Origin: Candidatus Latescibacterota bacterium
Lineage (GTDB): Bacteria; Latescibacterota; UBA2968; UBA8231
Assembly: GCA_036343635.1 (NCBI GenBank)
Contig: JAYYVF010000066.1
Span: 89,931-153,930 of the forward strand
DNA length: 64,000 nucleotides
Reading direction: 5' to 3'
The notes beneath the pieces were generated by a model. The model was not told the origin of the DNA and searched no databases. It saw only the letters and a list, made by a program, of their open reading frames with translations. The stretch's first letter is position 1. Each line of letters opens with the position of its first letter. Positions 12,043 to 50,351 of the stretch are shown piece after piece. The translations under genes and the position numbers were made by a program.

Positions 12043-12051
12043 GTTTTGATA

Positions 12052-13080: not shown

Positions 13081-13088
13081 AAAAGATT

Positions 13089-13751: not shown

Positions 13752-13754
13752 ATT

Positions 13755-24197: not shown

Positions 24198-24950
24198 CTA
24201 ATCCCAAATTACGACCTCAATACGTCGATTGAGCGTTTTATTCTCGGGTGAATTATTAGGTGCAATAGGATACGCCTCTCCATGTCCGCGAGCGTCGATC
24301 ATTTCTGATGTGATAAAGTCGTACGATTCTGTAAGATAATTTTTGACTGCTTTTGCTCTATCTTCGGATAGACGAAGGTTTGAATCCGCATTTCCGTCAC
24401 TATCGGTGTGGCCCACAAGAAGAATTTTTGTGGGGGAGAAATTTCCGACAAATTTTGCAATCCTGTCGAACTCGGCTGCAGTGCCGGGATTGAGCGACGC
24501 CTGGCCAGATGCGAAGAGTACGCTTGCATTGAGAGATAAACGTGGTACGACGTAGTCATTTTTCATTGCAGTCTTATGTAGGATTGTTGCAATTCCAATG
24601 TTTTCGTTTGAGGTAAAATCACCGATACATGTTTTCTCTTGAGAATCTATTATTTCCATTGTTCCAACATAAATACGCATAGTCAAATCTAAATTTCGGT
24701 TGACGATTTCTTTTCGGTATACGTTTAAAGTGTCTCCTGTATTAATGTTTGCATCTTGTCCCCGATCAATTATATAGTCGATGGGTGCTGTAATAGAATC
24801 AGAAGGTGCTAAACCATGATTAAATGGGCGAATAATTGTTATTATTTTAGGTGGTGTAAATCGAGGTTTAGGTTCTTCTTGTGCTGTTGTTGTATTGGCA
24901 ATTAATAAAACCAAGGTAAAAGAAAGTATTTTGTGAAATATGTTTTTCAT
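24198..24950 (-). CDS. OmpA-family peptidoglycan-binding protein with an unknown N-terminal domain
   Basis: Signal peptide, plus the C-terminal OmpA_C motif 'LLVGHTDSDGNADSNLRLSEDRAKAVKNYL...NRRIEVVIW'. Confidence 0.85.
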   Translation of the reverse strand: MKNIFHKILSFTLVLLIANTTTAQEEPKPRFTPPKIITIIRPFNHGLAPSDSITAPIDYIIDRGQDANINTGDTLNVYRKEIVNRNLDLTMRIYVGTMEIIDSQEKTCIGDFTSNENIGIATILHKTAMKNDYVVPRLSLNASVLFASGQASLNPGTAAEFDRIAKFVGNFSPTKILLVGHTDSDGNADSNLRLSEDRAKAVKNYLTESYDFITSEMIDARGHGEAYPIAPNNSPENKTLNRRIEVVIWD

Positions 24951-25013: not shown

Positions 25014-28000
25014 TTAATAATGAATTATTTTCGATTTCCCAAATGATTCAGCAAAAAGAAAGAAATCGTCAAAATCGATTTTTCCGTTAGGTGCTATATC
25101 TATATTTGGATTCCAGGCTGAATCTGTCAATGTTTGCCCAAAAACGTCTGCGAGAATAAAAAAATCTGTTAAGTCAACTAATCCGTCTCTATCAAAATCA
25201 CATGAATTTATTTGTAATGTGGAGTAAGGTCTTATTGGGGTTGTTATAGTGGTTGCTATACCATAATTGTCAGATGCCTGTAAATGTAAGGTGCCATTTG
25301 TAGGAAAACTGTTTGCCGAAATGGATAATGTTTGTGAGGAGTCGATTTCGAAGGTAAAGAGCTGATTTGGTATAATATGCGCTCGCCATGAAAGTTGGTC
25401 TGCCTTGTGAGATGACTCTATATATCGATTCAGATCAATCTTGGTTTTCCCCAATCCAAACAAGGTTATGTCCGGAAGTTTACGTATCTCGATTTTCTTT
25501 CGGGAGATAGTTTGGATAGAAGGAAAGTCTGTTGAGTTGATGTCTATTATAACGGGTTCGCTGTTGGATTGGACTTCTGAAGTTGGTTCATCTGAAGATG
25601 CAGACTCATGTATCATTACGTTGAGGCTCTGTCTTGCAGTTGCTCCTTGTCTATCGGTTGCTGTAAAGTCTATACTTCGCAAACCGGTTTCAGCATTATT
25701 GGCAGAAACCGTAGCAGTATTTAGTACCGTGTGAATACTTACTTGCAGACCTGACTCTGGCATAGCACTCCAAGTCAAAGAATCTACGGGTTCATCGTCT
25801 ACAGCGAAGTGATCAAGTGAAATTCTGAACAATTCTCCAGCACGTAGGAAAATGTCAGGAAACGTATTGATTGTAGGAAGAGGATTCGTGATGATCACTG
25901 GTATTTCCATCACCAATTGGCGTCCAACTTTGGACTCAGCCGTGATGTTCAAACGGGTGTTCCCCTTAAATCCATTAATTGCTTGGATAGAAATGGATTT
26001 CTTTGAAGTGTCAAATGCAGCAGTTAGTTGTTTTGATGGATCTAAAATGATTTGATCTGCCTGAGGGCCCATATAGGGCCCAATGTCAAAATTGAATTCT
26101 TTATACGGTGAAAATTGAATTGTCGGAATTTGTCGGAGTAACGGTTCCGTCCCATTCAGGATAATAGTAACTTCTCCGCTGTCTGTTTTCTGATGAGGGT
26201 CCTTGACTAATAATTTTAATATGTAAAAACTTGAGGGGTTCTCGGTTGGAGGTATCCAGGTTAAAACGTTTTTTTCAATGATAGCGCCGGGAAGCTCAGA
26301 AAATGACCAATTTAGAGTTTCTAGGGAGTCATCTTTGTCATTGACCCAATTGTCCAATTCAATATGAAGCGTTTCATTAGAAGATAAATACAGAGTGTCT
26401 GGGTTAGATAATATTGGAGGTGAGTTCACTTTCTTAATAACAAGGTCTAATGTGTCGATTGAACTCTTTCCATCTTGGTTATGCGCAGTGAAAACTAGTT
26501 GACGTTTTCCATGAAAGGGTGGGGATGGGACTAGTGTAGCATTACCTTCAGAATCAATCTCTACAGTGATTAAAGAATCATACATCGCTGTCCAGTAAAG
26601 ATTGGGAGGTGCACTATCAATATCTGTGGTTAGTTGTTTTAGATCTATTTTGGCTTTATATCCCTGCTGAATAGTCAGTTTTTTCATAGTTAAATTAGGT
26701 GGGTCATTTTTCGGTTCGACCAAAACCATAAACTGTTTATTTTGTGAGATTCTACTAAGATCTTTCGTCTCGATATCTATAGCGAATAAACCATTTGTGT
26801 TATCACCGGTCCACAACTTAAGTATTTGCTCATCAGCGATGTTGTTTATAAATAGGCCTTTTGATGGTGAAAAATATGTTTCTAATTCTGATAGAGCGTT
26901 GTCTGTATCAATTATCAGTGATTTTACAGGTATGCTAAGTGTGTCATCTTCGCTGAATCGTAGTGTGTCAAAAGATGAAAAAGCCGGATAATCATTAACG
27001 GGTTGGATTTGGATCGAAATCGTTTTTGATGTTTCTAAACCTAAATCGTCCCTTGCAGTTATGGTTAATGTGTCTAGGCCATAAAGATTCGGAAAAGGTC
27101 GCATAGTAATTGAGGTATTGGTTAACACGATTTCTGTTTTGTTGCCATTGTGTTTGATGCTTAACTCGTCTTCGTCTTCGTCAAATATGGTATGCTCCAA
27201 AGGAAGTGTGATGCCAATAGGATCATCTTCAATAAATGAATAAGATGATTCAAGTTGAATGACCGGTGGGTCATTGGAGACATTGGTAGCAAATAGTTCT
27301 GATGGCGGGCTTTCCAAAGCATCGTATTTATTGTCTGCGACATTACGAGCGATTAGATACGTTTTCTCATCGTCAGATTCAGTGTCATAGCGTAGTGATG
27401 TGAAAGTCACTTTTCCATTTTTAGCAATTGCAGTGTGTCCAAATAATGTCCCGGATCCTGACGTGTAAACTGCGACCGTATCTGAAAAATTATAGTCTAT
27501 AAGACCATTCTCATCTATGGCATAAACCGTAGGCTGTTGTTTTAAGAAATGGCCACTAAGACTACCTTGGGGTTGTATCTGAAATGAAAGTTTGGTAGAG
27601 TTGACGTTGACGAAAAAAGCTTTTGTATCGTCCGCTGCTATTGCTGTACCGTAGCCACCAACATTAGTAGATAAAGCTCCCGTAGGTGCACTGATACGCA
27701 TTGCATGGTTTTGCGTTGCATGTCTGGAGAAAACAACTGAGAGGATATAGTAGCGTGTTTGGTCTTCTTCTGGCGTTCTCGCAGTAGAAACAGAGACAAA
27801 AGCCTCAATACCAAGAGAGAAATTTGCTGAATCCAAAAGGCCAATTTGAGTCGCATCAGTTAAGGTGTTTTTGTCATTTTCATATAGATTAAAGGAACGT
27901 ACGTCACTTTGCTCAAAACCTGTCGCAGTTTGTAAATCGCTAGCGGTAAAATGTACTCCATTAATACTTGTTTTCCCATCTCCCGTATATGCAATACTAA

Positions 28001-29150: not shown

Positions 29151-29273
29151 ATCGTAAGTCTGGTTATGTTGATTGCTATTAACTAACTATCCAAGCAATT
29201 AAAGGATTTGAAGGTGCGAGCGATATACTAAAGAGAGACCTTCTTTTATTATGTCGGCTAGAAAACGAAAAAC

Positions 29274-32200
29274 ATGAACATTCTCCGCAATTATTTTTTA
29301 ATATATTTAGTTGTAAGTTTAAGTCCTGCAGTGAGTTGGAGCCAGTCCGCTTCGGTGTCTCCCAGTGGTCTGTCTAGGATACCCTTTGGGGCTACTGTTG
29401 ACAATCCGTTTTGGCAGCGTCTGAAGATCGAATTAAACGAGCACCCTTCTGCGGGAGACACGATAATTGTTCGATTACCTAGTGAAATTGGGATAGCCGA
29501 TACAGACCGCGATGGAGAGTTAGTAGATGAAGTGAATGTAGAAGATTCATCTGGTATTGGTACTGGCTATCGGGTAGTCCAAAATGTTAGTAGTCGAAGA
29601 ATCGTTTTGAAAAGCACCTATGGGGGATTGAAGGGAACAATTTATGTTCATTTTCCCATTGTGAGCCCATCAAATACTAACTCTTCTCAACTGGCATATG
29701 GGCAGATTTCCTTTTCCAACAGTAGGGAACAACCCATTTCAGCGGGCATGCTAATGCTAAACATTGTCCAGCCACGGGATCTAAATGTAGTTCAATTAAA
29801 TTCAGTTTTCGATCGAGCACTGGCTGATACAACAACTAATCCGCAGGGAGATATTTTCCCCACTAATTATTCAGAGGATGAGGGGATCCGGTTCCCGGAT
29901 TTTGTGCAAGACGAAAGTGGTTATGTAGGGAGATATGGTCTTGTTTCTGGGAATACGAATCCCGACGGGAACAATAGCAATGATACTAAATTTTTTGTAT
30001 GGATATCGACGAATGGAAATCTAGATCGTGTCTATGGGGATGTGGCCACGCCTGCTATAAGTAGCGACACCGGAGAATCTATCGGAGCAATAGAGGGCGA
30101 TTTGATGGAATTCAAATTAAAAATTGAAGATTTAGAAGAATTAGTCTATTACGTCTATATCACTTCGAATTTAACGGGTGACTTTCCATTGGCAAGGAGC
30201 AGAGGCATTCGAATTCGGCATGATCCTGTTATTTCATGGGTTGGGGAATTTTTAAGTGATGATAGTGACTATTTGGATTCAGGTAATTTACTTGATTTAG
30301 ATACGGGGGAGCCCGGTGCCCAGTGGAAGTCTCGCAATTCTATGCAAGTTAATTTTAAAGCGATTGATTACAACGACACCGCAACTGTAAAACTTTATTA
30401 CGCAACAGCTGACACTCTTGAAAAGGATTTTTTAATAATTAGTGGTTCGAGTCCCAACTTAGTTGTTGAGGGATTGAAGGAAGCAGAGCCGATAGACTCT
30501 ACAAAAATACTTCTAGAAGGTAGGGATACCGGCCAGTATTGGAATATTGCGATATCGGATTCTATTTACGTCCCTACCGGTGATTACTACATCTATGGTG
30601 TGATAAATGATGGAAAAACGCAAGCAGTTCAGAGATCCAAGCACAGCTTCCGTGTGCGACATTCTCCCTTTATAGCCTTAGACGTACGAAAAGATCGATT
30701 TATCCACACTGGAGGGAGTCTTGGTGAACGGTATTATACTATCACTTGGAATGGAGATCGTGGCCATGAGGGAGATAGAGCAATTGGGGATAGTGCAAAA
30801 ATCTCATTGTATTATAGCAGTCGATTTGATTATTCCATCCCTGATGGAGCAGAAGATATCGCCTCTGCTGCTGCGGATTCTTCAAAAGATACACACTTGA
30901 TTATTGATGGACTCGAAGAAAAAGACGATCGACGTATTGACAATCAATATGAATGGGACATTTGGACTTATCATAATCCTGACGATGGGGGAGTGCCTCG
31001 TGAAGGAGTTGATTATGGAATATATGCCATAGTTGAAACCGACTCTATGCGACGTTTGGTTCGATGGAATGATGAGTCAGATCAGCCACAGGTTCTTCAG
31101 TTTAGTCACGAGCCATTTCTTCGAGTTGTGGAACCTGCTAATACTTTTGAATTCAATGGTCGGCACGGATTTGATGTTGCCTGGGAAGCAATCGATGTGG
31201 ATGATGAAGCGAGCATTTGGGTGATATTGACTTCGGCGTCTGCTGCAGAAATATTGGGAGATTCAACGAGTTACAGTGCTTTGCGGTCGGATGGAATCTC
31301 TGATTGGTTAGCTAATTCGGAAGATGGTTGTAGCTCTACGACACAGTTATTGACCGAAAGTTCTCAACAGAGATTCAGTGTACGTCCTGCCACACTCGTT
31401 AAAACTATGTCGTGCGTGCAAACGTCGATTACAGATGGAGATTATTATGTATATGTCGTGGTAGATGCGACGTTGGAAAGTCAGCCAAATGACGAAGCTT
31501 TGGCTCGTCGTGCCCCGGGTAGGGTAAAGATTACAGGGTTGGGACCGGCTGGTGCCGTTGGATTACCAAGATTAAATCTAGAGTTTTTACCCGCTACTGT
31601 GAATACCGGATCGTCGGGTGATACCGTTACAGTACAAATTTATCCTAATACGGGAGGGGAAGAGGTCGATTTGATTACGATTTTTGCTAGTGTAGACACC
31701 TCCTTAGTTCGATTAGTAGATCAGGTTTCTGGACAGGAAGGCGTCCAACCGTTTCAATTATCAAGTGAAGCTACTGGGATGGTACTGAGGGATACATTAC
31801 TCTCGGGTCAGGATAGTCTGTATGCGGGACAATATCTTCTAGACCTTGTTTATTATGAACAAATGGGAACCAAAAGGTATGATGGAAGGCGGTCCCTTGC
31901 TTCTATTCAATTTGTTACACGGGATACCGTTGGGTCTACTAACGTTTGGTTTAACCATTTAGGGACACGAAAGACGGCATTCTATCGAGATGGTAAGACA
32001 TTAGCAGACATAGCTTCGCATGATGCTATGAAAATAAATGTCCAAAGTCGGGGAAGTATTGATGGGAAAATCCCATTGCAAGGGCGCAAAGATTTTAGTG
32101 GGATAACAACGTTTTATCTAAGAGACCGAAACAGTTTTGAACCTATCAGTGACGCTCGATTTATTGCGGCAAATGATATCGATTCAACGTTGTTGGGAAT

Positions 32201-33296
32201 ACAGGATTCATTGTCCTTTGACGGAAGATTTTCTCTGGTAGATATCCCGAGAGGCGAGTATCAATTAGTTGTGAGGAGACCTGGCTACTTAGATGGACAA
32301 ATCCCATCGGTTCTTATAGATAATGGAAAAACTGTTTCTGATCTTCAACCTACTTTTCAAATGGATGGTAGATCTAATCCGGGTTACTTGCTTGGCGGCG
32401 ATGTCACTGGCTATGTGAATAAGGAAGGTAAATCTATCTCTGACAATGAAATAGACCAACTCGATATTGATTATGTTGTGGCGTATTTTGGTCAGACAGT
32501 AGAGGTAGGTGGAGATGCTACTTTCGCAGATATTGACGGAGATAGCCTTGTATGGATTGCCGATTTGAACATGGTCGCAGCAAATTTTAATTCGCAAGGT
32601 GTGGCACCCGTATTTAAGGCGTCTACTAAGACTTCTGAAAATCCTTCTACTATGAAGATTCTTTCCTCTGAATCGAATGGGCGCCTTCGAATTGAAGCTG
32701 TCTTAGAAGGTGTTTCGGGTATGCGGGCTTATGTCGTCCGAGTTAACTACGATTCAGAAACGTGGAGATGGATAGGTGCCGAAGATTTTTCATTTTCAGG
32801 TCGTCAAGCTGTGTTTGCAGAATATTTCTCTGAGGATGAGGTTGCTTGGGCGTCGGCATTGGTTGGATTTGGTGACGGAGTAAATAATAATTCTACGCTA
32901 GCGAGTTTCGAGTTCGAACGAGTTGGGGATGAGGACGTGCCAGTTCTTATTGCGGAGATGGAGTGGATGGATGTTTTGGGTGGCCGTCACAGAGCAAAAT
33001 TTAGTTCCTCCTCGCAAAAAGAGGTGGTTTTACTTCCTAATGTCCCCAATCCTTTTAACCCATATACGCAAGTAAGCTTCAATTTGCCATACGAAGGAAG
33101 GATAGATGTTGGTGTTTACGACGTACTAGGTCGCAGAGTTCGTTCATTAGTTGGGGGGCTCTCGAAACCAGGTTTGCACACGGTCATTTGGAATGGTAGG
33201 GATAATTCGGGTCGGGATGTGGCATCAGGCACATATTTTTTACGTTTGCGTTTCGATGATAGAATCTCGATTCGCAAGATGCTGTTACTTCGCTGA
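29274..33296 (+). CDS. Giant T9SS cargo 'A1': four ~145-aa unknown modules + cohesin-like + CarboxypepD_reg-like + dockerin-like + second cohesin-like + T9SS CTD
   Basis: Signal peptide 'LVVSLSPAVSWSQ'. Module ends at 'YYVYITSN..RSRGIRIRHDP', 'GDYYIYGVIND..RSKHSFRVRHSP', 'DYGIYAIVETD..FSHEP' and 'GDYYVYVVVDA'. 'GGDVTGYVNKEG...ADIDGDSLVWIADLNMVAANF' is the dockerin-like part. The CTD is listed separately. Paralog of 37341..41324. Confidence 0.8.
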   Translation: MNILRNYFLIYLVVSLSPAVSWSQSASVSPSGLSRIPFGATVDNPFWQRLKIELNEHPSAGDTIIVRLPSEIGIADTDRDGELVDEVNVEDSSGIGTGYRVVQNVSSRRIVLKSTYGGLKGTIYVHFPIVSPSNTNSSQLAYGQISFSNSREQPISAGMLMLNIVQPRDLNVVQLNSVFDRALADTTTNPQGDIFPTNYSEDEGIRFPDFVQDESGYVGRYGLVSGNTNPDGNNSNDTKFFVWISTNGNLDRVYGDVATPAISSDTGESIGAIEGDLMEFKLKIEDLEELVYYVYITSNLTGDFPLARSRGIRIRHDPVISWVGEFLSDDSDYLDSGNLLDLDTGEPGAQWKSRNSMQVNFKAIDYNDTATVKLYYATADTLEKDFLIISGSSPNLVVEGLKEAEPIDSTKILLEGRDTGQYWNIAISDSIYVPTGDYYIYGVINDGKTQAVQRSKHSFRVRHSPFIALDVRKDRFIHTGGSLGERYYTITWNGDRGHEGDRAIGDSAKISLYYSSRFDYSIPDGAEDIASAAADSSKDTHLIIDGLEEKDDRRIDNQYEWDIWTYHNPDDGGVPREGVDYGIYAIVETDSMRRLVRWNDESDQPQVLQFSHEPFLRVVEPANTFEFNGRHGFDVAWEAIDVDDEASIWVILTSASAAEILGDSTSYSALRSDGISDWLANSEDGCSSTTQLLTESSQQRFSVRPATLVKTMSCVQTSITDGDYYVYVVVDATLESQPNDEALARRAPGRVKITGLGPAGAVGLPRLNLEFLPATVNTGSSGDTVTVQIYPNTGGEEVDLITIFASVDTSLVRLVDQVSGQEGVQPFQLSSEATGMVLRDTLLSGQDSLYAGQYLLDLVYYEQMGTKRYDGRRSLASIQFVTRDTVGSTNVWFNHLGTRKTAFYRDGKTLADIASHDAMKINVQSRGSIDGKIPLQGRKDFSGITTFYLRDRNSFEPISDARFIAANDIDSTLLGIQDSLSFDGRFSLVDIPRGEYQLVVRRPGYLDGQIPSVLIDNGKTVSDLQPTFQMDGRSNPGYLLGGDVTGYVNKEGKSISDNEIDQLDIDYVVAYFGQTVEVGGDATFADIDGDSLVWIADLNMVAANFNSQGVAPVFKASTKTSENPSTMKILSSESNGRLRIEAVLEGVSGMRAYVVRVNYDSETWRWIGAEDFSFSGRQAVFAEYFSEDEVAWASALVGFGDGVNNNSTLASFEFERVGDEDVPVLIAEMEWMDVLGGRHRAKFSSSSQKEVVLLPNVPNPFNPYTQVSFNLPYEGRIDVGVYDVLGRRVRSLVGGLSKPGLHTVIWNGRDNSGRDVASGTYFLRLRFDDRISIRKMLLLR
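32394..32600 (+). other. Dockerin-like module in A1 (approximate coordinates)
   Basis: 'GGDVTGYVNKEGKSISDNEIDQLDIDYVVAYFG...ADIDGDSLVWIADLNMVAANFNSQG'. The second loop is canonical and the first carries an insertion. Confidence 0.5.
33030..33293 (+). other. T9SS type-A C-terminal sorting domain (Por_Secre_tail / FlgD-Ig-like) of A1
   Basis: 'LLPNVPNPFNPYTQVSFNLP...VYDVLGRRVRSL...VIWNGRDNSGRDVASGTYFLRL...MLLLR'. Confidence 0.85.
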
Positions 33297-33305
33297 GCTT
33301 TTATC

Positions 33306-37103: not shown

Positions 37104-37340
37104 TACGGGTATTTAAAGGAAAGTCTGATTAGTTGGAACATTGTTTGCTCTTATGAACCATGGGATTTTTATCTGGCTATGTAGAGATTTTATACAGCAG
37201 AATCGTATAATGCGGTAAATGCCATATATAATAAGAGTTTATGGTCATTTAACTCTTTGTGATGTCCGGTGAGAGGTATATGTGAAACGGAAAGATCTTC
37301 TTTACTTTGCGGAACATAATCTGCAAATGAAAGCTACGTC

Positions 37341-41324: not shown

Positions 41325-44300
41325 ACAATATGTTAAGAAAACTAAAATCGTTATTCTTCGGGTTGTTACTTATCTCATCCTCACCGTCAATGGCAGCGAA
41401 GATAGAAATAAGTAGTCCAATGTTGATTGAAACGAATCGCGTTGAGTTGGGACAAACAGTACCCGTGGAGATTGTGATCGACACCGAAGGTGAGATTATC
41501 AATGGTTATAGTATTTATTTGTCCTACGATCCAAACGTGTTGTCCGTAGATCCTGTTTCGGGGTCAGATGGAAAGGGAATGCCTTTTTTAAGTGGAGATT
41601 TTTTAGATGGAATAATGCTTCAAAATTCGGCAGAAAACAAAGATGAAAAGGTCCTTTTGAGTTATGTAGAAGCTGTTGGTGGTGCGCCAAGACAAGGGGT
41701 AAAAGGGAAGGGAGTAGTTGCGCATATTAATTTCAAGGTTTTGCGTAGGATTAGTGGCGATACGACGTCTATAGTTGTAGAAGAGGCACCTGGAGACTAT
41801 ATAACACATTACGTTTATGACGGGGCTCCTGGCCGCGAAATATACTTTAATACTCCTATTGAATCCGTAACGATACATGTCACGGGTTTTCGTATGGATC
41901 CATTGCCTGACATCGATCTGATAGAGGGAAAATCAGAAATGGTATTCGATTTAGATCAGTACGTCGATACGTTGTTGACAGACGTTTTCTGGACGCATTC
42001 TCGCTTGAGTGAAATATCAACATTTATTAATGAGCAAACTAATCAAGTTACGATGAGGCCCGACAAAGAATTTGTTGGAAGAAGACGGATGATATTTACC
42101 GCCTATGAATTAAATGAAGGTATCTCTGTATCAGATACCATATCACTAAATGTGCGTTCAGCACCTGTGATAAAAAGTTTGCCAGCAAAGGTAGGTTTCC
42201 TTGAGGATGGTGAGGATAAGTCAATTGATCTAGATAGTAAAGTAACTGATTTAGATGACGATTTAGAAGATTTAATTTGGGAGGCAAAGAGTGGGGATGG
42301 TTTGAACGTGAAGATTGACCCCATTTCAAAGATTGTCACCTTTACTACTAAGCCTGATTATTTCGGAAATAATTTTGTTGATTTTTTTGTTACTGATAGC
42401 GATGGATTAACCGATTCGCTTAGGGTACCCGTAGAAGTGATTCCCGTAAATGATCCGCCGGAAGCTTTTGCTCCAAGCCCAATTTATCCAGTTGTCAATG
42501 GGCCACCCATAACAATTCCCTTAGAAGATTTTTTCACAGACGTTGATGACTCTATTGAGTCGCTTCAAGTATTTTTTGAATTGCAAGATGGTGTTAGAGC
42601 CGAATTGTCAGATAACGATGTTTTAATCTATGGGACAAAAGTTGGCCGAAGTATTGTCACAATAAGCGCTCAGGATCTTTCCGGACTTAGTATTAAGACG
42701 AGGCAAATTGTAATTGTCTTAGAAGAAGGACAGTCTATCGGGCCTGAATTAGATCAATTTTCACTCATGCGAATCCCAATGGGTGGTCAGCAGCAACTAA
42801 TTTTGACTGACAAAGTTACTGACGATCAATCACAAGAAGAAATAATCTGGACGATAGAGCCTGATAGTGGCTTTGTTGCGAACATAATCGACGGTGTACT
42901 GTATGTTGCTGCTGAGCCAGGTTTTAAAGGAATGGGCGAGGTTGGAGTTACGGCGACTGACCGTCAGGGGAATTTTGACCGCGAGGTTATAACGGTTTAT
43001 ATGCAACAGGGCGAAGATGGCTTGGGGCCGATTCTCACGGTTAATGGTAAAGTGGGATTGAGGTCAGGCGAAATTGCAAGTTTTCTGGTGGATGACTGGG
43101 TGGAGGACCCTGATCACCAAGATTCTCAATTGAATTGGAATTTTATCTCTACCTCGGGTGTTATTTCGCAGTACGATGTATTTGAGAGAGAGTTGTTTGT
43201 TAGAGCTGAGGAGTCACTTGTTGAACCTGCTGCTATAACTTTACGGGTAAATGATCCTGATGGAAATTTTGATGAGGTTACGTTGCCTGTATTGTTTGCT
43301 CGAAGTGGTGAGCCTCCTAAATTAGCCCCTTTGCCTGAAGTCAATCTGGAAAGTAGTGGCGACGAGGCAAAAGTAGATCTAGATGACTTTGCCTATGATG
43401 ATACCGATCGTGAAAGCGAATTAATCTGGGAAATTGAATCTGATCCGGGAATTGACGTTTCCTATAATCCTATTAGTCACGATTTATCAATTCGACGGGA
43501 AGACTCTGACGGATTAGAGGGGGCACCGTTATCTGCTCAAGTCATTGTTAAAACACAGGATACGAGTGGTTTAGAAAAAGCGGGGCGTATCGATGTCGGT
43601 TTACCACCAGTTTTTGAATTGTTTCCCTTTCCTGCCGTGGAACTGTATTCAGGAAGCGCTGATTCGTCTCTTTTATTAACTGAATATGTACTGGCACCCG
43701 AAGGTCGACCTTCTCCGGTTTTAGTTTGGAGTATTGATTCAACAAATGAAATTGTAGCCGAAATTGATTCGAGTTCTAACAGACTTTATTTGCGAGTCGG
43801 TTTGGAAAGTTTTACAGGAAGTCAGAGCCTTGAATTAAAGGCTCTGGATCGCACAGGCCGGATTCGTACCTCGGACCTTCGCGTTGTTGTTAATGGGTTA
43901 GGTCTGTCTCCTCAATTACGTTCCTTTCCGAGATTAGAAATACTGCAAGGCAACATCGACTCATCTGTTGATTTAGATGATTATGTTGTAGACGATAACC
44001 CAGATTCCAAATTACAATGGAGTGTTAGTGGTCACGAGGATCTTCCGGTTTCAATTGACCCTGATACTCGGATTTTAACGGTTGACGCCACGGAGACTCA
44101 GGTCTCAATTGAGGTCCTTCATTTTATCGTTCGTGACCCAGCTGGAAACGTAGATGTTGGCTCTATGGAAGTGGGGATTCTTCGTGGAGGCAATCCGCCG
44201 ACGATAGGCCAGTTGCCACAAGTTATTTTAAAGGAAGGTGGACGCGAACAGCAGATCGATCTGAAGCCTTATATTGTTGACGAGGATACGCCAGTTGAAA

Positions 44301-45412
44301 ATATGAAGGTGGATGTGGAAGCGGAAGCTGGTGTTGCTGCTCGTATTTCCGATGGGCAACTAATTTTATCTGTGCCTGGAGGACAAAGAGGAAACCGCAC
44401 ATTAAAGATTACAGCTACGGATCCGCAGGGTAATGTAGATGTTGCAGAGCTTAAAGTATTAATTGATCAAGATGAGGAAGTACCAGAGCTAAGTCTCGAT
44501 ATAGTTCGTCATCCAATATTTTCCGAAGAACTTGGCATATCAATTAGTGCCGATGAAGCTTTGATGAGCCCACCGTTAGTTACTGTTGGTCAGGATAGTC
44601 TTTCTGTAAAAGATGTTGGACCGAATACTTACAAAACAGCTTTTATACATCCAGGTGAACCTAAACAGAGTATTGTATATATAGAGGTTAAAGCTCAAGA
44701 TTTGGCGGGTAATGTAGGTATAAAACGACAGGAAGTAAGTTTGTCCTGGATGGATGATAAAGGCGGCAATATTCGAAGCCCTGATCCGGAAGTTATGCTC
44801 AATGTACCTTCTTCTGCATCAAGGCCTGGGCAACTTGCTGTCGTTTACAAGTTGGATCCACAGAAAGTACCAGGGGGGAGTGAAGGAGAACCGGTTTACT
44901 CGATTGATTTGGAGAGAGGAAAAAAATTGAGGGCTCCAGTTACTGTGAATTTTCTGACTTCGTCTGAAAAAAACTCGGATTTAGGTCTATTGCGTTGGGA
45001 TGATGATAAAAAAGAATGGGTTGATTTACCGACAAGTATTGATCCACAGACAGGATGGCTCTCAACTACGGTTGAAGATCTTGGATTGTTCAGGAAGGGA
45101 GTTGTTTCACCGGATAATAGATTAGAAAATGATCCCTTGCGTGTTTATCCAAATCCATTTCGACCTGGAAAAACACAAGATGTACGAGTTGATTATCGAG
45201 TTAAATATCCGGGCGAAATTCGCTTATATATTTTTAACGCTCTGGGGACAAAGGTGCGAACTCTTACCGATGAATATCAGGAAGTAGGAGCTTGGAGCGT
45301 AGGATGGGATGGGTCGGATGATAAGGGTATGAGAGTAGCGAGTGGAGTTTATTATTTTGAATTGCAAAATTATAGCCGTCGTGAGAGGGCTGTGTTGGTG
45401 TTAATCCGTTGA
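41321..45412 (+). CDS. Giant T9SS cargo 'B2', paralog of B1: cohesin-like N-terminus + ~9 cadherin-like repeats + Ig-like region + T9SS CTD
   Basis: 'VPVEIVIDTEGEIINGYSIYLSYDPNVLSV...GVVAHINFKVLRR' is cohesin-like. About 9 repeats have cores such as 'IDLDSKVTDLDDDLEDLIWEA' and 'VDLDDYVVDDNPDSKLQWSV', with a 'VNDPPEA' boundary. ATGA overlap with the A2 stop. Confidence 0.8.
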   Translation: MNNMLRKLKSLFFGLLLISSSPSMAAKIEISSPMLIETNRVELGQTVPVEIVIDTEGEIINGYSIYLSYDPNVLSVDPVSGSDGKGMPFLSGDFLDGIMLQNSAENKDEKVLLSYVEAVGGAPRQGVKGKGVVAHINFKVLRRISGDTTSIVVEEAPGDYITHYVYDGAPGREIYFNTPIESVTIHVTGFRMDPLPDIDLIEGKSEMVFDLDQYVDTLLTDVFWTHSRLSEISTFINEQTNQVTMRPDKEFVGRRRMIFTAYELNEGISVSDTISLNVRSAPVIKSLPAKVGFLEDGEDKSIDLDSKVTDLDDDLEDLIWEAKSGDGLNVKIDPISKIVTFTTKPDYFGNNFVDFFVTDSDGLTDSLRVPVEVIPVNDPPEAFAPSPIYPVVNGPPITIPLEDFFTDVDDSIESLQVFFELQDGVRAELSDNDVLIYGTKVGRSIVTISAQDLSGLSIKTRQIVIVLEEGQSIGPELDQFSLMRIPMGGQQQLILTDKVTDDQSQEEIIWTIEPDSGFVANIIDGVLYVAAEPGFKGMGEVGVTATDRQGNFDREVITVYMQQGEDGLGPILTVNGKVGLRSGEIASFLVDDWVEDPDHQDSQLNWNFISTSGVISQYDVFERELFVRAEESLVEPAAITLRVNDPDGNFDEVTLPVLFARSGEPPKLAPLPEVNLESSGDEAKVDLDDFAYDDTDRESELIWEIESDPGIDVSYNPISHDLSIRREDSDGLEGAPLSAQVIVKTQDTSGLEKAGRIDVGLPPVFELFPFPAVELYSGSADSSLLLTEYVLAPEGRPSPVLVWSIDSTNEIVAEIDSSSNRLYLRVGLESFTGSQSLELKALDRTGRIRTSDLRVVVNGLGLSPQLRSFPRLEILQGNIDSSVDLDDYVVDDNPDSKLQWSVSGHEDLPVSIDPDTRILTVDATETQVSIEVLHFIVRDPAGNVDVGSMEVGILRGGNPPTIGQLPQVILKEGGREQQIDLKPYIVDEDTPVENMKVDVEAEAGVAARISDGQLILSVPGGQRGNRTLKITATDPQGNVDVAELKVLIDQDEEVPELSLDIVRHPIFSEELGISISADEALMSPPLVTVGQDSLSVKDVGPNTYKTAFIHPGEPKQSIVYIEVKAQDLAGNVGIKRQEVSLSWMDDKGGNIRSPDPEVMLNVPSSASRPGQLAVVYKLDPQKVPGGSEGEPVYSIDLERGKKLRAPVTVNFLTSSEKNSDLGLLRWDDDKKEWVDLPTSIDPQTGWLSTTVEDLGLFRKGVVSPDNRLENDPLRVYPNPFRPGKTQDVRVDYRVKYPGEIRLYIFNALGTKVRTLTDEYQEVGAWSVGWDGSDDKGMRVASGVYYFELQNYSRRERAVLVLIR
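45137..45409 (+). other. T9SS C-terminal sorting domain of B2 (slightly divergent)
   Basis: 'LRVYPNPFRPGKTQDVRV...IFNALGTKVRTL...VGWDGSDDKGMRVASGVYYFEL...LVLIR'. Confidence 0.8.
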
Positions 45413-45422
45413 GCTTGCGAGA

Positions 45423-48400
45423 ATGACTATGAGAAAATCAAAGTTCAACATCATATTTCTATTTATTGTGTCCTCTCAAGTAGGAATATTGATGGCTGCG
45501 ACTAATGAATGGTCGAATGCGGGGAGTGGTATTTCCGCTGCAGTCAATGTTGTCGATTTTCACGAGGGACATTTGGACACACTCTATGCGGGGTCTGTGC
45601 ATGGGTTGTATCGGAGTGACGATGGAGGTCGTAATTGGCAACTGCGTGGGGTATCTTTGATCGATCGAAACATACTTAGCCTTGCTATCAATCCTCAGAA
45701 GCCCAAAACTGTCTACGCGGGAACGAGGTCCGGCATGTGGTTGAGCGAAGATGCAGGATCCACTTGGGCGGCGGTCGCAGGTTTTGATACGGGAGTGCTC
45801 AGTCTTTCGACGGGCATTAATAATCGTGTTTATGCAGGGACTTTTGGCCAAGGTGTTTTTAGGAGTTTGGATGGAGGAGATACTTGGGCCAATATAAGTT
45901 CGGGGTTTTTATCAGAGATTATTTTTTGTGTAGTGGTGCACCCTCTTAACCCAGACATAGTTTACGCTGGTACGGATAACGGTATGTATAAAAGTACAGA
46001 TGCCGGAGTAAACTGGACCTTAATGGATGAATTTTCAGGTTTAAGTGTTCGCAGCATAGCCATCGGAGTCGAAGCTGGAAGCGGTTCAGTTAATGTTGGC
46101 ACTTTTGGTCAAGGGGTCTTTATAAGTAGTGATGGGGGGAACCAATGGCAAGCTTCGAATAATGGTTTAACGGATTTGAATGTTCGTGCCATTGCTATTG
46201 ATTCAGAGAGCCCCGGTGTGTTTTTTGCAGGGACTTCGTCAGAAGGTTTTTACCGCAGTAAAGATAGCGGTCGCACCTGGTCATCAATTAACAATGGTCT
46301 CTCAAACCTCTCTGTCCGAACGATTTCATTGATATCAGGGGATGAACGAAGAGTATTGGTGGGGACGGCTGGTTCAGGTGTCTATTCAATTGATTTTGTT
46401 CCGGAGCCAATAATAAGAACGAGCGTTTATAAGCTTGATCTAGGTGCAGTGAAGGTGTCGGAAACAGATTTTAAAATGTTTGAAATATATAACGATGGTA
46501 CGGAAGAATTAATTGTTTCAGAAATAATAACCAAAAATACCGGAAACTTTTCAGTCAGTTTGAAAGATTTTGTTATTCCTGTCGGCGGGTCTAAACAGAT
46601 CCAAATTGATTTTCATCCTGTAGCTGTGGGTGATATCGTAGAAAATATTGAAATCAAAAGTAACGATAGAGATACTCCGGTTTCAGAGTTAGAGGTAATA
46701 GGCCTCGGGCAACAAGTATCATTAATCCTGACTCCATCAGAGGTTCAATTTGATGATGTCGCACTTGATTCCTATGTGGACACTTTCATAGTTTTATCGA
46801 ATATCGGTAATATCTCAGCCAAGTTACGTAATGCTTATTTTGAAAATGACTCTTTTCGTCTAATGAGTATTCTTCCGAATTTGTTATTACCTGGGAATGA
46901 AATAAAACTCCAATTGCGTTTTATACCTTCGATAGCGAAGGGAATATCGTCTCGTTTCGTGGTGTTAGGAGAAGATGATTCAAAGGTCGAAGCTACTGTA
47001 GATGGTGTTGGGTCTGCATCGGAATTGACGCTTTCAACAACGAATTTTGATTTTTCTACCGTCGAATTGGTGTCTGATTCCTTAGGGGTTGTTTTGATAA
47101 GTAACAGTGGAAACATTTCACTAAGGGTGGATGAGTTGTCTGTTGATGGACAGGGCTTTACTGTTGCATCTGAGGAAAGTTTTGTGGTTGAGCCAGCTCA
47201 AGAACATCGAGTAGTGATTCGATTTTCTCCTCAAACAGCTGGCGAATATGTTGGTCAACTCGTAATCAGAAGTGATGCAAGGATCAATGCCGAAGTTCGG
47301 GTTCCATTACGCGGTATTGGCAGTGCTCTTGCCTTAAGAGCACAGAATGGTCTGCATGTCGGCCGAGGGATATCAAGGATGCTCAATGCTGATTTAGATG
47401 CAAATGGAGCGATCGATATCGTTTTGGCAGATAGTGTGGCGGGGTCTTTGCGTATTTTATTGAACGATGGTAATGGAAATTTTGGGACGCAACAGAGAAT
47501 ACCGTCGAACAGTGTAACGTATGGAGATTGGGATAGCCCGAACTCCATGGCCGTCGCACCGATATATGGTGAGGCGCCTGATTTAATTGTTGCTGATCCA
47601 ATGGCCAGAACATTGTCGGTACTCAGGAATAATGGGGCCGGAGATTTGGCCTCGGATAGAAACGATATTTATATCGGTTACACGGTCGCGGCTGTTTTGC
47701 CTCTTGATGTTGATGCAGATGGGGATTTTGATCTTGCAACAGCAAATAGTGATGCTGCCTCGGTAATGGTTCTCCAGAACAATGGCCGAGGGACGTTTAG
47801 CACTCGCGATGCCTATCAAGTCGCGTTGAGCCCTACTGATTTAACAGGTGGCAACCTGAATGAAGATGTCTATCCAGATATTGTCGTTGCCAACAGCGGA
47901 TCCGGTAGTGTTTCGATAATGTTGGGAGATGGTAGTGGAAAGTTTGATGAACCATATGAAATTCAAGTTGGATTGGGTACGACCCGTGTCCATATTGCAG
48001 ATATTGATGCCGATGGTGACAACGATATTATAGCCGCAAATCAGGAGTCTAAAGATATCGCTATAGTTTTAAATGATGGTGATGGAACTTTTTACCTTGA
48101 CCAGAGAGTCCCTGTCGGATTGGCGCCAATTGATATGGATTTGTCGGATTTGACGCTGGATGTTTTTAGTGACATAGTGGTAGTCGGTGGCGACGGTGAT
48201 TTTTTGACTTTTATTGAAAACAATGGTAATTCGAATTATAGTACTCGCCAAGTAGTAACAGCGAAATCTGTTCTTTCAGATGTTGCCATTTTTGATGTAA
48301 ATAATGACGGAGCAAATGACATTGTTGCAATTGCTCCGTCTGATGAGGAGCTTGTTGTCTTTTTAAATGAAGACGCCCGACGCGGTGATGCCCCTAGACC

Positions 48401-50351
48401 TCCAACTAAGTTGACGGCAAATGATCTTGGCCAGGATTTGGGTCGTCGCGTTGAACTGCAATGGGTTGCCCCGGAAATAGATGAACAACTAGGCAGAACA
48501 ACCCATTACGTAATTTACAGAGCGGATGATCGTGAAGGAGACTATGTTGCGATAGATACCGTTGGTCAGGGTCTTCGTAGATATGTTGATGTAGCGGCAA
48601 CCTTAGTGGATACGTTCTTCTATAACGTTGTTGCTAGTAATGCTTCTGTCTCATCTACTCCTTCTGACACGGTGTGGGCTATTTCCCAACCTGCTCCTTT
48701 TTTCGAATTTGAAGTCAGGAATGAAGGGCCTTATAGTATCGGTGATACAATAGCTATTCGCACTTTTTTGATACCTACTGTGCATTCAGTGACGGGAATT
48801 TCTCTTTATTTGTCGTACGATGATTCTTCTTTAACACTCATTGATGCCCTTACTGATTCATTGATTACTAATCTGTCTAAAAGTTTGTCCGCTGCTGTTC
48901 CATTTAATGTGGATGGACTATTTACTGGACGTGTTTATCAGAACAAATTACATGATGGAGAAGTTGGAAAGGTAGATCTGTCAATATTACATTCAGTTGG
49001 GACGGCCTTGGTAGACCCGGGTATCGATCCGGTTTATTTAGGAGAGCTTCGGTTTGTGGCAAATGTAGAAGATCAGTCTATTTTATACATAGACAATGAT
49101 GTAATCAATAATCGTATAAGTGCTATAGCGGATGTCGATGGTAGTTTGGTAATGCCGTTCATTCCAGCGATTCCGCTAGAAATAGCTGTGAGTGATTTTT
49201 TAGTTAGAGGAAATATAAAATTACAGGGTTGGCCTGCAAATACAGGTAGTGCAGTAACGGTGCTGCTTTATGACGAAGCAGGAAAATTGTTCATGTCTCC
49301 ATCAAACGATCTAGACCCTCTTAAATTTGGAATTCAGCGTTTGGTTGATAGAAATGGAGATTTTAACCTTCGTCAGGTCCCACCAGGTAGTTACGATGTT
49401 TTGGTGAAATCTCCGACTCATTTACAGGTTCGGGCTCAGGGTGGGAAAGTCGTGGTAGGAGAGGAATTGGCCGATACTACACTGAGTTTTGAATGGGTTG
49501 GTCGAGATACCAGTTCGATTTTATTGGCTGGCGACGCAAATGATGATAACAGAATTAATCTAGCTGACTTTGCGCTTCTGGTCGATTTTTTCAATCAGAA
49601 TGTGGCACAGGAACCAAAGGCTCGCCAAAGTGATTTTAATGGTGACGATACTGTTAACATAGCGGATTTTTTCTTATTGGCAGAGAATTTTGGTCTTGTA
49701 GGTATGGAGTGGAGTCTACCGGCAAGCAAGCGATCCAGAATTGTGTACGAATTGGAACGAGGGCAGTATGGAGGGCTGAGGCTCAGTAACAGCCTATCTT
49801 TGCGAGGTATGGCTCTGCTGGTTGGTGGTGACAGTCCGAATGACTTGACAATTACAGGTAGTATTTGGGATAGGCCTGATGTTGTGACACGAATTTGGCA
49901 GGAAAAAAATGGATTAAGGATCGCCAGCGTTTTGACAGATGGAGCGGTTGAAGCCGGCGCTGGTTCACCGGTTCTAGGTCTTCCTTCTGACATGAGTTTG
50001 CTAAGCGGCGAATTATTGATGGAGGATGGTAGAATCCTTCGTGTAGGTATGAAAGAGAAAGTTTATTTAAATGCCACGAATAAACTTTTGAATAATTACC
50101 CTAATCCATTCAACCCACAAACAACAATTCCATTTGTTCTTGCTAATGATTCTCACATTGATTTAAAAATTTACAACTCTCTGGGGCAAATTGTTCGGTC
50201 TTTATTCAGTGGACAGATTAAAGGGGGATCTCATAATTTTAATTGGGACGGGAGAAATGATGTGGAGAAACCTGTTGCCTCAGGAATTTATTTCTATCGT
50301 TTACGTGTGAAAGATCAAGCAATGGTTCGAAGGTTGCTGCTCGTTCGATAA
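45423..50351 (+). CDS. Giant T9SS cargo 'C': BNR/Asp-box propeller + 3 HYDIN/PapD-like Ig domains + FG-GAP/VCBS propeller + FN3 + cohesin-like + CarboxypepD_reg-like + dockerin-like + T9SS CTD
   Basis: Asp-boxes 'SDDGGRNW', 'SEDAGSTW', 'SLDGGDTW', 'STDAGVNW', 'SSDGGNQW', 'SKDSGRTW'. FG-GAP loops 'DLDANGAIDIV', 'DVDADGDFDL', 'DIDADGDNDII', 'DVNNDGANDIV'. Cohesin-like 'IGDTIAIRTFLIPTVHSVTGISLYLSYDDSSLTL'. The dockerin and CTD are listed separately. Confidence 0.8.
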   Translation: MTMRKSKFNIIFLFIVSSQVGILMAATNEWSNAGSGISAAVNVVDFHEGHLDTLYAGSVHGLYRSDDGGRNWQLRGVSLIDRNILSLAINPQKPKTVYAGTRSGMWLSEDAGSTWAAVAGFDTGVLSLSTGINNRVYAGTFGQGVFRSLDGGDTWANISSGFLSEIIFCVVVHPLNPDIVYAGTDNGMYKSTDAGVNWTLMDEFSGLSVRSIAIGVEAGSGSVNVGTFGQGVFISSDGGNQWQASNNGLTDLNVRAIAIDSESPGVFFAGTSSEGFYRSKDSGRTWSSINNGLSNLSVRTISLISGDERRVLVGTAGSGVYSIDFVPEPIIRTSVYKLDLGAVKVSETDFKMFEIYNDGTEELIVSEIITKNTGNFSVSLKDFVIPVGGSKQIQIDFHPVAVGDIVENIEIKSNDRDTPVSELEVIGLGQQVSLILTPSEVQFDDVALDSYVDTFIVLSNIGNISAKLRNAYFENDSFRLMSILPNLLLPGNEIKLQLRFIPSIAKGISSRFVVLGEDDSKVEATVDGVGSASELTLSTTNFDFSTVELVSDSLGVVLISNSGNISLRVDELSVDGQGFTVASEESFVVEPAQEHRVVIRFSPQTAGEYVGQLVIRSDARINAEVRVPLRGIGSALALRAQNGLHVGRGISRMLNADLDANGAIDIVLADSVAGSLRILLNDGNGNFGTQQRIPSNSVTYGDWDSPNSMAVAPIYGEAPDLIVADPMARTLSVLRNNGAGDLASDRNDIYIGYTVAAVLPLDVDADGDFDLATANSDAASVMVLQNNGRGTFSTRDAYQVALSPTDLTGGNLNEDVYPDIVVANSGSGSVSIMLGDGSGKFDEPYEIQVGLGTTRVHIADIDADGDNDIIAANQESKDIAIVLNDGDGTFYLDQRVPVGLAPIDMDLSDLTLDVFSDIVVVGGDGDFLTFIENNGNSNYSTRQVVTAKSVLSDVAIFDVNNDGANDIVAIAPSDEELVVFLNEDARRGDAPRPPTKLTANDLGQDLGRRVELQWVAPEIDEQLGRTTHYVIYRADDREGDYVAIDTVGQGLRRYVDVAATLVDTFFYNVVASNASVSSTPSDTVWAISQPAPFFEFEVRNEGPYSIGDTIAIRTFLIPTVHSVTGISLYLSYDDSSLTLIDALTDSLITNLSKSLSAAVPFNVDGLFTGRVYQNKLHDGEVGKVDLSILHSVGTALVDPGIDPVYLGELRFVANVEDQSILYIDNDVINNRISAIADVDGSLVMPFIPAIPLEIAVSDFLVRGNIKLQGWPANTGSAVTVLLYDEAGKLFMSPSNDLDPLKFGIQRLVDRNGDFNLRQVPPGSYDVLVKSPTHLQVRAQGGKVVVGEELADTTLSFEWVGRDTSSILLAGDANDDNRINLADFALLVDFFNQNVAQEPKARQSDFNGDDTVNIADFFLLAENFGLVGMEWSLPASKRSRIVYELERGQYGGLRLSNSLSLRGMALLVGGDSPNDLTITGSIWDRPDVVTRIWQEKNGLRIASVLTDGAVEAGAGSPVLGLPSDMSLLSGELLMEDGRILRVGMKEKVYLNATNKLLNNYPNPFNPQTTIPFVLANDSHIDLKIYNSLGQIVRSLFSGQIKGGSHNFNWDGRNDVEKPVASGIYFYRLRVKDQAMVRRLLLVR
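49524..49695 (+). other. Dockerin-like module in C (approximate coordinates)
   Basis: 'GDANDDNRINLADFALLVDFF...SDFNGDDTVNIADFFLLAENFG' forms two canonical Ca-loop + helix segments. Confidence 0.7.
50085..50348 (+). other. T9SS type-A C-terminal sorting domain of C
   Basis: 'LLNNYPNPFNPQTTIPFVL...IYNSLGQIVRSL...FNWDGRNDVEKPVASGIYFYRL...LLLVR'. Confidence 0.85.

Follow-up and report, generated by a model that had tools for sequence, protein, structure and literature searches.

A conserved cluster of six giant proteins with cohesin, dockerin and T9SS sorting modules in a Latescibacterota bacterium

What might a bacterium build from giant secreted proteins that carry the coupling modules of a cellulosome and no recognisable enzyme? 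The question is raised by a 64-kb stretch of DNA (the window) from contig JAYYVF010000066.1 of a Candidatus Latescibacterota bacterium, where six adjacent giant open reading frames (ORFs), p1 to p6, fill positions 25014-50351 and combine cohesin and dockerin modules with C-terminal sorting domains (CTDs) of a type IX secretion system (T9SS). Their coordinates and lengths, confirmed from the ORF list, are exactly those of an earlier note on this DNA, which had read the six proteins as a surface scaffold or adhesive lattice held together by cohesin-dockerin contacts. Pairing between cohesin and dockerin is familiar chiefly as what holds Gram-positive cellulosomes together, and the role of the modules outside cellulosomes is mostly unassigned. 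On balance, we favour a cluster encoding a non-enzymatic, hierarchical cohesin-dockerin assembly of T9SS cargo that would serve in surface adhesion. Our literature search turned up no account of this cluster or its cohesin-X-dockerin-CTD cassette; neither Youssef 2015 nor a Latescibacterota paper of 2023 mentions cohesin or dockerin.

Coupling and sorting modules of the six proteins

Three of the proteins, p2, p4 and p6, share a cassette with the order cohesin, immunoglobulin (Ig)-like X module, dockerin, beta-sandwich Y and CTD (module coordinates, given as residues of each protein and nucleotides of the window, are collected in Table 1). p2 and p4 are full-length paralogues (blastp E=1e-115, 29% identity), and the C-terminal ~600 residues of p6 are common to both (p2 aa 715-1340 against p6 aa 1057-1642, E=3e-34). 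From an alignment of 19 sequences we obtained an AlphaFold2 (AF2) model of p2 aa 750-1340, with a mean predicted local distance difference test score (pLDDT) of 79 and of ~90 in the first two domains. Along the chain it has five domains (beta-sandwich, Ig-like domain, helical dockerin, second beta-sandwich Y and CTD). Its best PDB matches by Foldseek are the CohI9-X-DocII structures of the Clostridium (Acetivibrio) thermocellum scaffoldin CipA (4fl4_C, 1.3e-11; 3kcp_A, 4.4e-11; ~370 columns), at a sequence identity to the CipA fragment of only about 15%. The model also matches lone X-dockerin (XDoc) dyads (4u3s_B, 5k39_B, 4wi0_B and 2b59_B; target TM score 0.68-0.70, root-mean-square deviation ~4.6 A) as well as the cohesin structures 2w1n and 3l8q. 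Beyond FlgD/CTD-type chains, the PDB sequences matched by a profile of 31 members of the p2/p4 family were XDoc chains, i.e., 5g5d_B (4.9e-5), 2b59_B, 4u3s_B, 3kcp_A, 4wi0_B and 5k39_B, with E-values from 5e-5 to 1e-2. With p6 alone, phmmer retrieved 4wi0_B, 2b59_B and 3kcp_A in matches covering X and dockerin. Sequence profile and predicted structure both indicate that the first three modules of the cassette follow the CohI9-X-DocII order of the CipA C-terminus. The N-terminal part of p2 (aa 24-752; AF2, pLDDT 85) is modelled as all-beta with ~5 sandwich domains, matching arrays of macroglobulin-domain, Ig/FN3, protocadherin and S-layer assembly proteins in Foldseek.

Two further proteins, p3 and p5, have in common an N-terminal cohesin, internal cadherin-like repeats and a C-terminal part with related pre-CTD modules (hhalign 98.2%). 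A profile of 31 of these tip cohesins retrieved almost exclusively cohesins from the PDB. Type II cohesins came out best, with the ScaB dyad 3l8q_A at 9e-7 and the SdbA structures 2bm3, 2b59_A and 3kcp_B at 2-3e-3, followed by 5m0y_A, 5g5d_A and 1tyj_A; the tip cohesins of p3 and p5 are thus predicted to be closest to type II. Using an iteratively built repeat hidden Markov model (HMM), we counted 23 cadherin-like repeats of ~95 aa (seven in p1, seven in p3 and nine in p5), close to an earlier estimate of about 25. p3 diverges much faster than the proteins encoded beside it, its orthologues being 23-29% identical as opposed to 38-48% for p2, p4 and p5 of the same genomes; in the closest metagenome-assembled genome (MAG) it reaches 56% identity and its neighbours 68-72%.

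The remaining protein, p1, has a signal peptide and a C-terminal dockerin, with neither an X module nor a CTD, and its orthologues likewise end in a dockerin and lack a CTD. Its propeller resembles the teneurin-like NHL propeller 9ifo_A (E=8e-78). The p1-type dockerin profile matches 2y3n_B, an enzyme-borne cellulosomal dockerin, over its full length and both F-hand repeats (E=1.5e-9). A protein search with this profile retrieved only short fragments of 42-125 aa, which carry no information on enzyme carriers.

How firmly can these modules be identified? Against gathering scores of 24.1 bits for PF00963 (cohesin) and 22.9 bits for PF00404 (dockerin), only p5 passes the former, with 30.3 bits for the whole protein and 35.2 for the isolated module, and only p6 the latter, with 24.2 bits. 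The p3 cohesin stays under the gathering score at 18.8 bits, and p2, p4 and p6 give no direct PF00963 match, yet five of the 31 members of the p2/p4 family do (best 4.7e-8). We compared the modules by hhalign, using alignments built from orthologues. The p3 cohesin matched those of p5 (99.7%) and p6 (98.2%), and the p2/p4 cohesin matched those of p3, p6 and p5 (96.4%, 95.3% and 94.8%, respectively), linking all five cohesin modules as one predicted family. The p2/p4 and p1 dockerins matched the p6 dockerin (98.1% and 97.8%), and the X modules of p2/p4 matched that of p6 (98.9%), whereas module Y was only weakly similar to the cohesins (80-84%). Module HMMs run over the whole window placed cohesins and CTDs in p2-p6 only and dockerins in p1, p2, p4 and p6 only. 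The earlier claims that five ORFs, all but the NHL protein, carry a cohesin and that four carry duplicated dockerin loops are thus borne out, the former by Pfam, hhalign (95-99.7%) and structure together.

Because most of the modules lie below the Pfam gathering scores, we considered that they might be mere structural beta-sandwich and Ca2+-binding EF-hand spacers that do not bind one another, each protein acting alone as an independent giant adhesin. Calmodulin-type EF-hands are also picked up by the p1-type dockerin profile, with weaker E-values, and the part of PMC8542988 that cites Peer et al. 2009 refers to widespread non-cellulosomal cohesins and dockerins of unassigned function. We regard such independent adhesins as quite unlikely. 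All five cohesins and four dockerins of the window are packed into six adjacent genes, and the complete XDoc dyad and its Ca loops are kept in distant orthologues. We looked for dockerins as two tandem F-hands with 12-residue Ca2+ loops, D/N at positions 1, 3, 5, 9 and 12, and a helix after each loop. The duplicated Ca-loop residues are conserved across all orthologues, both loops of the p1-type and p6-type dockerins are canonical throughout, and the helices are present in the p2 model. p2-type and p4-type dockerins differ systematically across orthologues, a difference to be expected were each paralogue pair to have a specificity of its own.

The earlier assignment of type-A CTDs to p2-p6 also holds. 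TIGR04183 (cutoff 23 bits) was exceeded at the extreme C-terminus of p2 (25.7), p3 (23.3), p4 (28.3) and p6 (36.0), and the p5 CTD, at 16.4 bits below that cutoff, scored 33.6 bits with FlgD_ig (threshold 27) and 64 bits with an HMM of the p2/p4-family CTD. All six proteins open with a hydrophobic signal-like segment, in agreement with the signal peptides noted before; p2, p5 and p6 each have a signal peptide, and that of p3 is short and atypical, lacking a basic residue. A predicted signal-peptidase site followed by Gln (A-x-A|Q) occurs in p1 (aa 29), p2 (aa 24, nt 29343) and p4 (aa 22, nt 37404). Gln follows the cleavage site in most orthologues (L001-L041), those of p3 included, and is the invariant first mature residue in a 16-sequence alignment (A3). 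This recalls, outside Bacteroidota, the 'Bacteroidetes Q-rule' of N-terminal pyroglutamate as it is cited in the relevant passage of PMC11285876.

Payloads, relatives and spread of the cassette

If the modules couple proteins to one another, what do they carry? Neither Pfam and NCBIfam scans nor the fold of the p2 N-terminal model revealed a catalytic domain in p1-p6, and no carbohydrate-binding module (CBM) was found in them. Several segments (p1 aa 355-625, the p3 and p5 pre-CTD modules, p6 aa 985-1095 and module Y) had no Pfam match at E<=1, except for a faint Ig-like match in p1. The N-terminus of p6 was considered as a GH74 xyloglucanase and rejected: it forms a single ~300-aa propeller and not two seven-bladed ones, and its matches to 1sqj and 2ebs are fragmentary and blade-to-blade. 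Its reading as an 'F510_1955 glycosylhydrolase' fell for the same single propeller and for an NCBIfam score below the cutoff (NF045728, 130 bits against 175). We accept the earlier statement that the cluster contains no recognisable enzyme or CBM motif. Of the binding domains listed with it, the NHL, BNR, FG-GAP and Ig-like ones were recovered, and an FN3 domain in p6 found no Pfam support.

A search for the same gene order in related MAGs, which the earlier note had proposed, recovered it, with proteins 25-72% identical, from more than 30 MAGs at the species level. In the protein collection ~32 full-length proteins belong to the p2/p4 family, none of them named, and a scan of species-representative genomes placed the family in ~40 MAGs labelled Candidatus Latescibacterota, Gemmatimonadota/-etes or Handelsmanbacteria, labels that are inconsistent between records. 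The closest relative, at 72% identity, is a Tara Oceans MAG named 'Gemmatimonadetes bacterium'. The recurrent order is PolX, inositol monophosphatase (IMPase), a 207-aa ORF, OmpA, p1 on the opposite strand, p2-p3-p4-p5-p6 and a glucosaminidase. Some lineages have a reduced form with p1, then p4-p5-p6, then adh_short, which makes p2-p3 look like a copy of the p4-p5 pair from an old tandem duplication. The GC content of the block (0.39-0.44) is the same as that of its flanks; together with the synteny, which extends to PolX, IMPase and OmpA in the flanks, this rules out an island that is mobile or was gained by horizontal transfer. The lineage has inherited the locus vertically as part of its core, and the word 'island' previously applied to it is a misnomer.

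We tallied the modules in all ORFs of 48 related loci. Cohesin, dockerin and CTD occur together in 54 ORFs and cohesin with CTD in 27, so that every full-length cohesin ORF carries a CTD (81/81); eight CTD-less cohesin ORFs are short fragments of split genes. None of the 22 dockerin-only ORFs has a CTD. This rule fits a cellulosome-like division into anchored scaffoldins and free subunits, i.e., an anchored scaffold that recruits partners. Its strictness, and the retention of the anchor-less, dockerin-only p1 in every genome, are further points against the proteins acting as independent adhesins. Two accessory classes of dockerin-only gene were found in relatives (Table 1). Genes of the first class encode ~1,900-aa proteins in which NHL and FG-GAP propellers are combined with a dockerin of the p1 type and, at the C-terminus, an FGE-sulfatase-like domain; those of the second encode leucine-rich repeat (LRR) proteins, with the dockerin near the N-terminus in one locus (L017). 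By their domain content, these CTD-less accessory proteins appear to be binding-type payloads.

The same tally bears on the view that the cluster comprises only the scaffoldin and adaptor genes of an enzyme-display system, with dockerin-tagged hydrolases encoded elsewhere docking on the tip or cassette cohesins. Classical scaffoldin gene clusters such as cipA-olpB-orf2p-olpA of C. thermocellum are likewise not known to include enzymes, and an enzyme-free cluster alone is thus no distinction from cellulosomes. The module identities and enzyme-free architecture of the earlier interpretation hold up, and the contrast that it drew with classical cellulosomes was overstated. The Coh-X-Doc cassette and the type II-like cohesins moreover copy scaffoldin-anchor logic, and with five cohesins to four dockerins one socket would stay free. 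A T9SS-CTD scaffoldin with dockerin-bearing enzymes has been inferred for Ca. Stygibacter (PMC8542988), and the passage of PMC7081726 that cites Farag 2017 attributes 'cellulosome-affiliated enzymes' to Latescibacteria. Enzyme display nevertheless seems unlikely to us, as neither the cluster nor the 48 related loci encode a dockerin-tagged enzyme, the dockerin-only neighbours being all of binding type (NHL, FG-GAP, LRR, FGE-sulfatase-like) and never a hydrolase. CBMs are missing as well, and there is one cohesin per protein (two if Y is counted) in place of a tandem array.

The cassette extends well beyond these loci. An exhaustive HMMER search of 1.84 billion representative proteins with a profile of Coh-X-Doc only gave 124 matches at E<=1e-30 and 814 at E<=1e-10. 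Well over 100 representatives of 600-2,900 aa match the whole cassette in one stretch, usually 250-350 residues ahead of the C-terminus. They come from Latescibacterota and candidate division KSB1 and bear public names such as 'hypothetical protein', 'T9SS type A sorting domain-containing protein' and 'FlgD immunoglobulin-like domain containing protein'. We scanned 29 carriers outside the p2, p4 and p6 size classes with Pfam and found FlgD_ig, i.e., the CTD, in 27 (best 1.8e-13), Por_Secre_tail in 17 (4.7e-9), Cohesin in seven (6e-12), Dockerin_1 in five (7e-9), FG-GAP_3 in four (2.8e-47) and DUF642 in one (2.3e-5). Pfam detected no catalytic family in any of the 29, a further point against enzyme display.

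Since cohesin and dockerin always stand together in the cassette, whose full length is matched in over 100 protein clusters, they could also bind each other, either within one molecule or between identical copies, and act as a latch that causes autoinhibition or yields head-to-tail fibres; many carriers may, in addition, lack dedicated partners nearby. Such a latch appears very unlikely. The equivalent CohI9 and DocII modules of CipA (3kcp, 4fl4) differ in specificity and are not known to pair, and single-module proteins (p3, p5 and p1) accompany the cassette proteins in every locus, favouring pairing between different proteins.

A proposed surface assembly and its nearest precedents

In the adhesion assembly that we favour, the proteins would be exported by the Sec pathway, p2-p6 would then cross the outer membrane by the T9SS and stay on the surface, and the dockerins would fold in Ca2+-rich water. 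The XDoc dyads of p2, p4 and p6 may dock on the tip cohesins of p3 and p5, which are type II-like, with p2-p3 and p4-p5 as the likeliest cognate pairs, as suggested by gene adjacency, the 4-nt overlap between the p4 stop and the p5 start, and the 9-nt gap between p2 and p3. The plain dockerin of p1 would plug into a cassette cohesin, and in relatives the LRR and FG-GAP/FGE-sulfatase proteins, whose dockerin is of the same type, would dock like p1. Such contacts would yield a branched and multivalent array in which cadherin-like stalks present NHL, BNR and FG-GAP propellers, and through which the cell might adhere to particles, polymers or other cells.

Several observations weigh against this proposal. 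Direct Pfam significance is limited to the p5 cohesin and the p6 dockerin. Loop 1 of the p2/p4 dockerins is extended by ~8 residues, and position 9 of loop 2 is Trp in the p2 type, which may make Ca binding there atypical. The pairing itself is proposed by analogy with the XDocII of C. thermocellum CipA and its anchors SdbA, OlpB and Orf2p, and both proposed partners (e.g., p2 and p3) are self-anchored, unlike classical scaffoldin-anchor pairs. No ligand is assigned to the propellers, and p1 is without a known route across the outer membrane. Finally, Pfam and NCBIfam scans of the window found none of the T9SS machinery (SprA/Sov, PorU, PorV, GldKLMN), and an extension past its right end showed housekeeping genes only and no T9SS genes; reviews count Gemmatimonadetes, Cloacimonadota and Fibrobacterota among the phyla of the Fibrobacterota-Chlorobiota-Bacteroidota (FCB) group in which a T9SS 'may be present' (PMC11285876).

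The closest precedent is CipA. As in that system, the module order is cohesin, Ig-like X and dockerin (closest structural match E~1e-11), partner-type, type II-like cohesins sit on separate cell-anchored proteins (p3/p5 here; SdbA, OlpB and Orf2p there), and the genes are clustered without enzymes. In contrast to CipA, the host is a diderm of the FCB group, the anchor is a T9SS type-A CTD rather than SLH domains, every cohesin protein is anchored and has one cohesin rather than nine, CBM3 is absent, and the payloads are propellers and Ig/cadherin-like repeats instead of glycoside hydrolases. Where a cellulosome is recognised by a tandem-cohesin scaffoldin with a CBM, we find one clear cohesin per protein (plus the weak Y) and no CBM.

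Nearer in phylogeny, a cohesin scaffoldin with a T9SS CTD was described by in silico inference in the Cloacimonadota 'Ca. Stygibacter' (Williams et al. 2021, PMC8542988), likewise an FCB-group bacterium with a cohesin protein surface-tagged by a T9SS CTD. That organism has a single 3,755-aa scaffoldin with tandem cohesins and CBM2/CBM3, and dockerins on GH18, GH57 and peptidases (PMC8542988), whereas the present locus has no CBMs or enzymes and instead has the Coh-X-Doc cassette and a conserved six-gene cluster. The novelty here is a non-cellulosomal cohesin-dockerin system on T9SS cargo, a T9SS-CTD scaffoldin itself having already been inferred in Cloacimonadota (PMC8542988).

Pairing outside cellulose degradation has a precedent in the NagH/NagJ toxin complexes of Clostridium perfringens (2jnk, 2ozn, 2o4e) and in the survey of Peer et al. 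2009. NagH/NagJ-type chains appear among our weaker profile matches; unlike the non-catalytic T9SS cargo described here, they link secreted enzymes of a Gram-positive pathogen. p2-p6 share with known T9SS cargo (Porphyromonas gingivalis gingipains; Flavobacterium SprB and RemA) the C-terminal Ig-like sorting domain of TIGR04183 type A and large, repeat-rich proteins. To our knowledge, cohesin-X-dockerin cassettes have not been reported in such cargo. SprB differs in having a type-B CTD and a gliding track, and no gliding-motor genes were identified here; a reading as gliding adhesins is not supported, the CTDs being of type A and the GldA/F/G-like ATP-binding cassette (ABC) transporter genes of the window falling below NCBIfam equivalog cutoffs.

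A broader proposal, which we hold to be doubtful, is that proteins with the cassette form a large and so far unrecognised class of T9SS surface scaffolds that assemble themselves, spread over candidate phyla of the FCB group (Latescibacterota, KSB1 and the lineage labelled Gemmatimonadota). In this class, cohesin-dockerin pairing would have passed from enzyme display to the building of a Ca2+-dependent adhesion lattice, and CTD-less p1-like proteins would be exported by 'hitch-hiking' on cohesin cargo before or during T9SS transport.

The cluster is a compact, conserved test case, with five sockets and four plugs in six genes whose logic mirrors the CipA/SdbA hierarchy, in uncultured, marine, globally distributed bacteria of the FCB group (Latescibacterota/Gemmatimonadota group). 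If the proposed adhesion assembly is correct, it would widen the known repertoire of T9SS cargo organisation, could help to explain the attachment of particle-associated bacteria and would offer new orthogonal Coh-XDoc pairs for protein engineering; more than 100 protein clusters now named hypothetical or 'T9SS sorting domain-containing' would receive a first functional label.

Locus layout and neighbouring genes

The tight packing of the cluster and the p4/p5 overlap suggest that its genes are co-expressed. A scan for sigma-70 promoters and terminators gave sites no more numerous than expected by chance, the sole notable one lying in the p3-p4 gap.

Table 1. Features of the cluster, its conserved neighbours and accessory genes in related loci
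Feature	Nucleotides (window unless a locus is named)	Strand	Residues	Basis or remark
OmpA-family peptidoglycan-binding protein	24198..24950	-		Pfam OmpA; conserved cluster neighbour
p1	25014..29150	-	1378 aa
p1 NHL beta-propeller			~29-360	Pfam TEN_NHL, NHL
p1 beta-rich region			360-620
p1 cadherin-like repeats, 7			642-1307	repeat HMM; Pfam Big_9
p1 C-terminal dockerin	25038-25205		1316-1371	profile against 2y3n_B
p2	29274..33296	+	1340 aa
p2 Ig-like beta-sandwich domains, ~5			24-752	AF2 and Foldseek
p2 cohesin	31575-32048		768-925
p2 Ig-like X module			927-1040
p2 dockerin	32394-32609		1041-1112
p2 beta-sandwich Y			1126-1240
p2 T9SS CTD			1253-1340	TIGR04183 above cutoff
p3	33306..37103	+	1265 aa
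p3 N-terminal cohesin	33378-33836		25-177
p3 cadherin-like repeats, at least 7			230-990	repeat HMM
p3 pre-CTD module			990-1178
p3 T9SS CTD			1181-1265	Por_Secre_tail, TIGR04183
p4	37341..41324	+	1327 aa
p4 Ig array			22-741
p4 cohesin			754-915	module HMMs
p4 X module			916-1019	module HMMs
p4 dockerin	40419-40637		1027-1099	module HMMs
p4 Y			1115-1224
p4 CTD			1240-1327	TIGR04183, 28.3 bits
p5	41321..45412	+	1363 aa
p5 N-terminal cohesin	41402-41863		28-181
p5 cadherin-like repeats, 9			205-1048	repeat HMM
p5 pre-CTD module			1055-1270
p5 CTD			1275-1363	FlgD_ig, family CTD HMM
p6	45423..50351	+	1642 aa
p6 single BNR/Asp-box propeller (BNR/Sortilin)			~30-325	Pfam/NCBIfam
p6 HYDIN/ASH-type Ig domains, 3			329-640
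p6 FG-GAP propeller			~650-985
p6 cohesin	48696-49208		1092-1262
p6 X module			1263-1358
p6 dockerin	49509-49712		1363-1430	Dockerin_1, 24.2 bits
p6 Y			1436-1552
p6 CTD			1555-1642
bax-like glucosaminidase	50369-51307	+		Pfam Glucosaminidase; NCBIfam
PgaB/IcaB-like polysaccharide N-deacetylase	51308-52393	+		Pfam Polysacc_deac_1; NCBIfam
~1,900-aa class genes	L012:1904-5143, L013:1-5967, L014:3-5717, L015			upstream of p1 orthologue
LRR class genes	L017:15743-19513, L002:6742-9555

p6 also matches Pfam CarboxypepD_reg. On its 3' side, the glucosaminidase follows after a 17-nt gap and the deacetylase after a 0-nt gap, and the two are possibly co-transcribed with the scaffold genes in the same operon; they are compatible with a cell-envelope or matrix context but do not prove it. 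The glucosaminidase is syntenic in three related loci (L020, L024 and L027) and the OmpA neighbour in six (L001, L003, L005, L016, L017 and L018); the latter gene matches NCBIfam families of OmpA-like lipoproteins, all under their cutoffs. The 207-aa ORF (23064-23687) is kept next to the cluster by many relatives (39-65% identity) and has no Pfam or NCBIfam match.

Further upstream, positions 1811-16291 hold a Bat/MoxR aerotolerance-type operon (MoxR AAA_3, DUF58, BatA, BatB, TPR, BatD and TPR-SH3), which is split at 3752-10095 by a GldA/GldF/GldG-like ABC transporter and a DUF4340 gene. The best NCBIfam matches of the GldA/F/G-like genes are gliding-motility ABC subunits, all below the equivalog cutoffs, and the GldG-like protein is unusually long (1105 aa), with two ABC_transp_aux stretches. 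Between the Bat operon and the cluster, a FapA-family protein of 718 aa, by name flagellar assembly protein A, is encoded on the minus strand (17480-19636) and adjoins genes for uridine kinase, PolX and inositol monophosphatase. On the other side, a 959-aa ORF (56958-59837) combines TolB-like PD40 repeats with a weak C-terminal match to the Omp85 family; it overlaps the preceding SprT/DUF2786 gene (55994-57073) by ~115 nt, and its GTG start is probably placed too far upstream.

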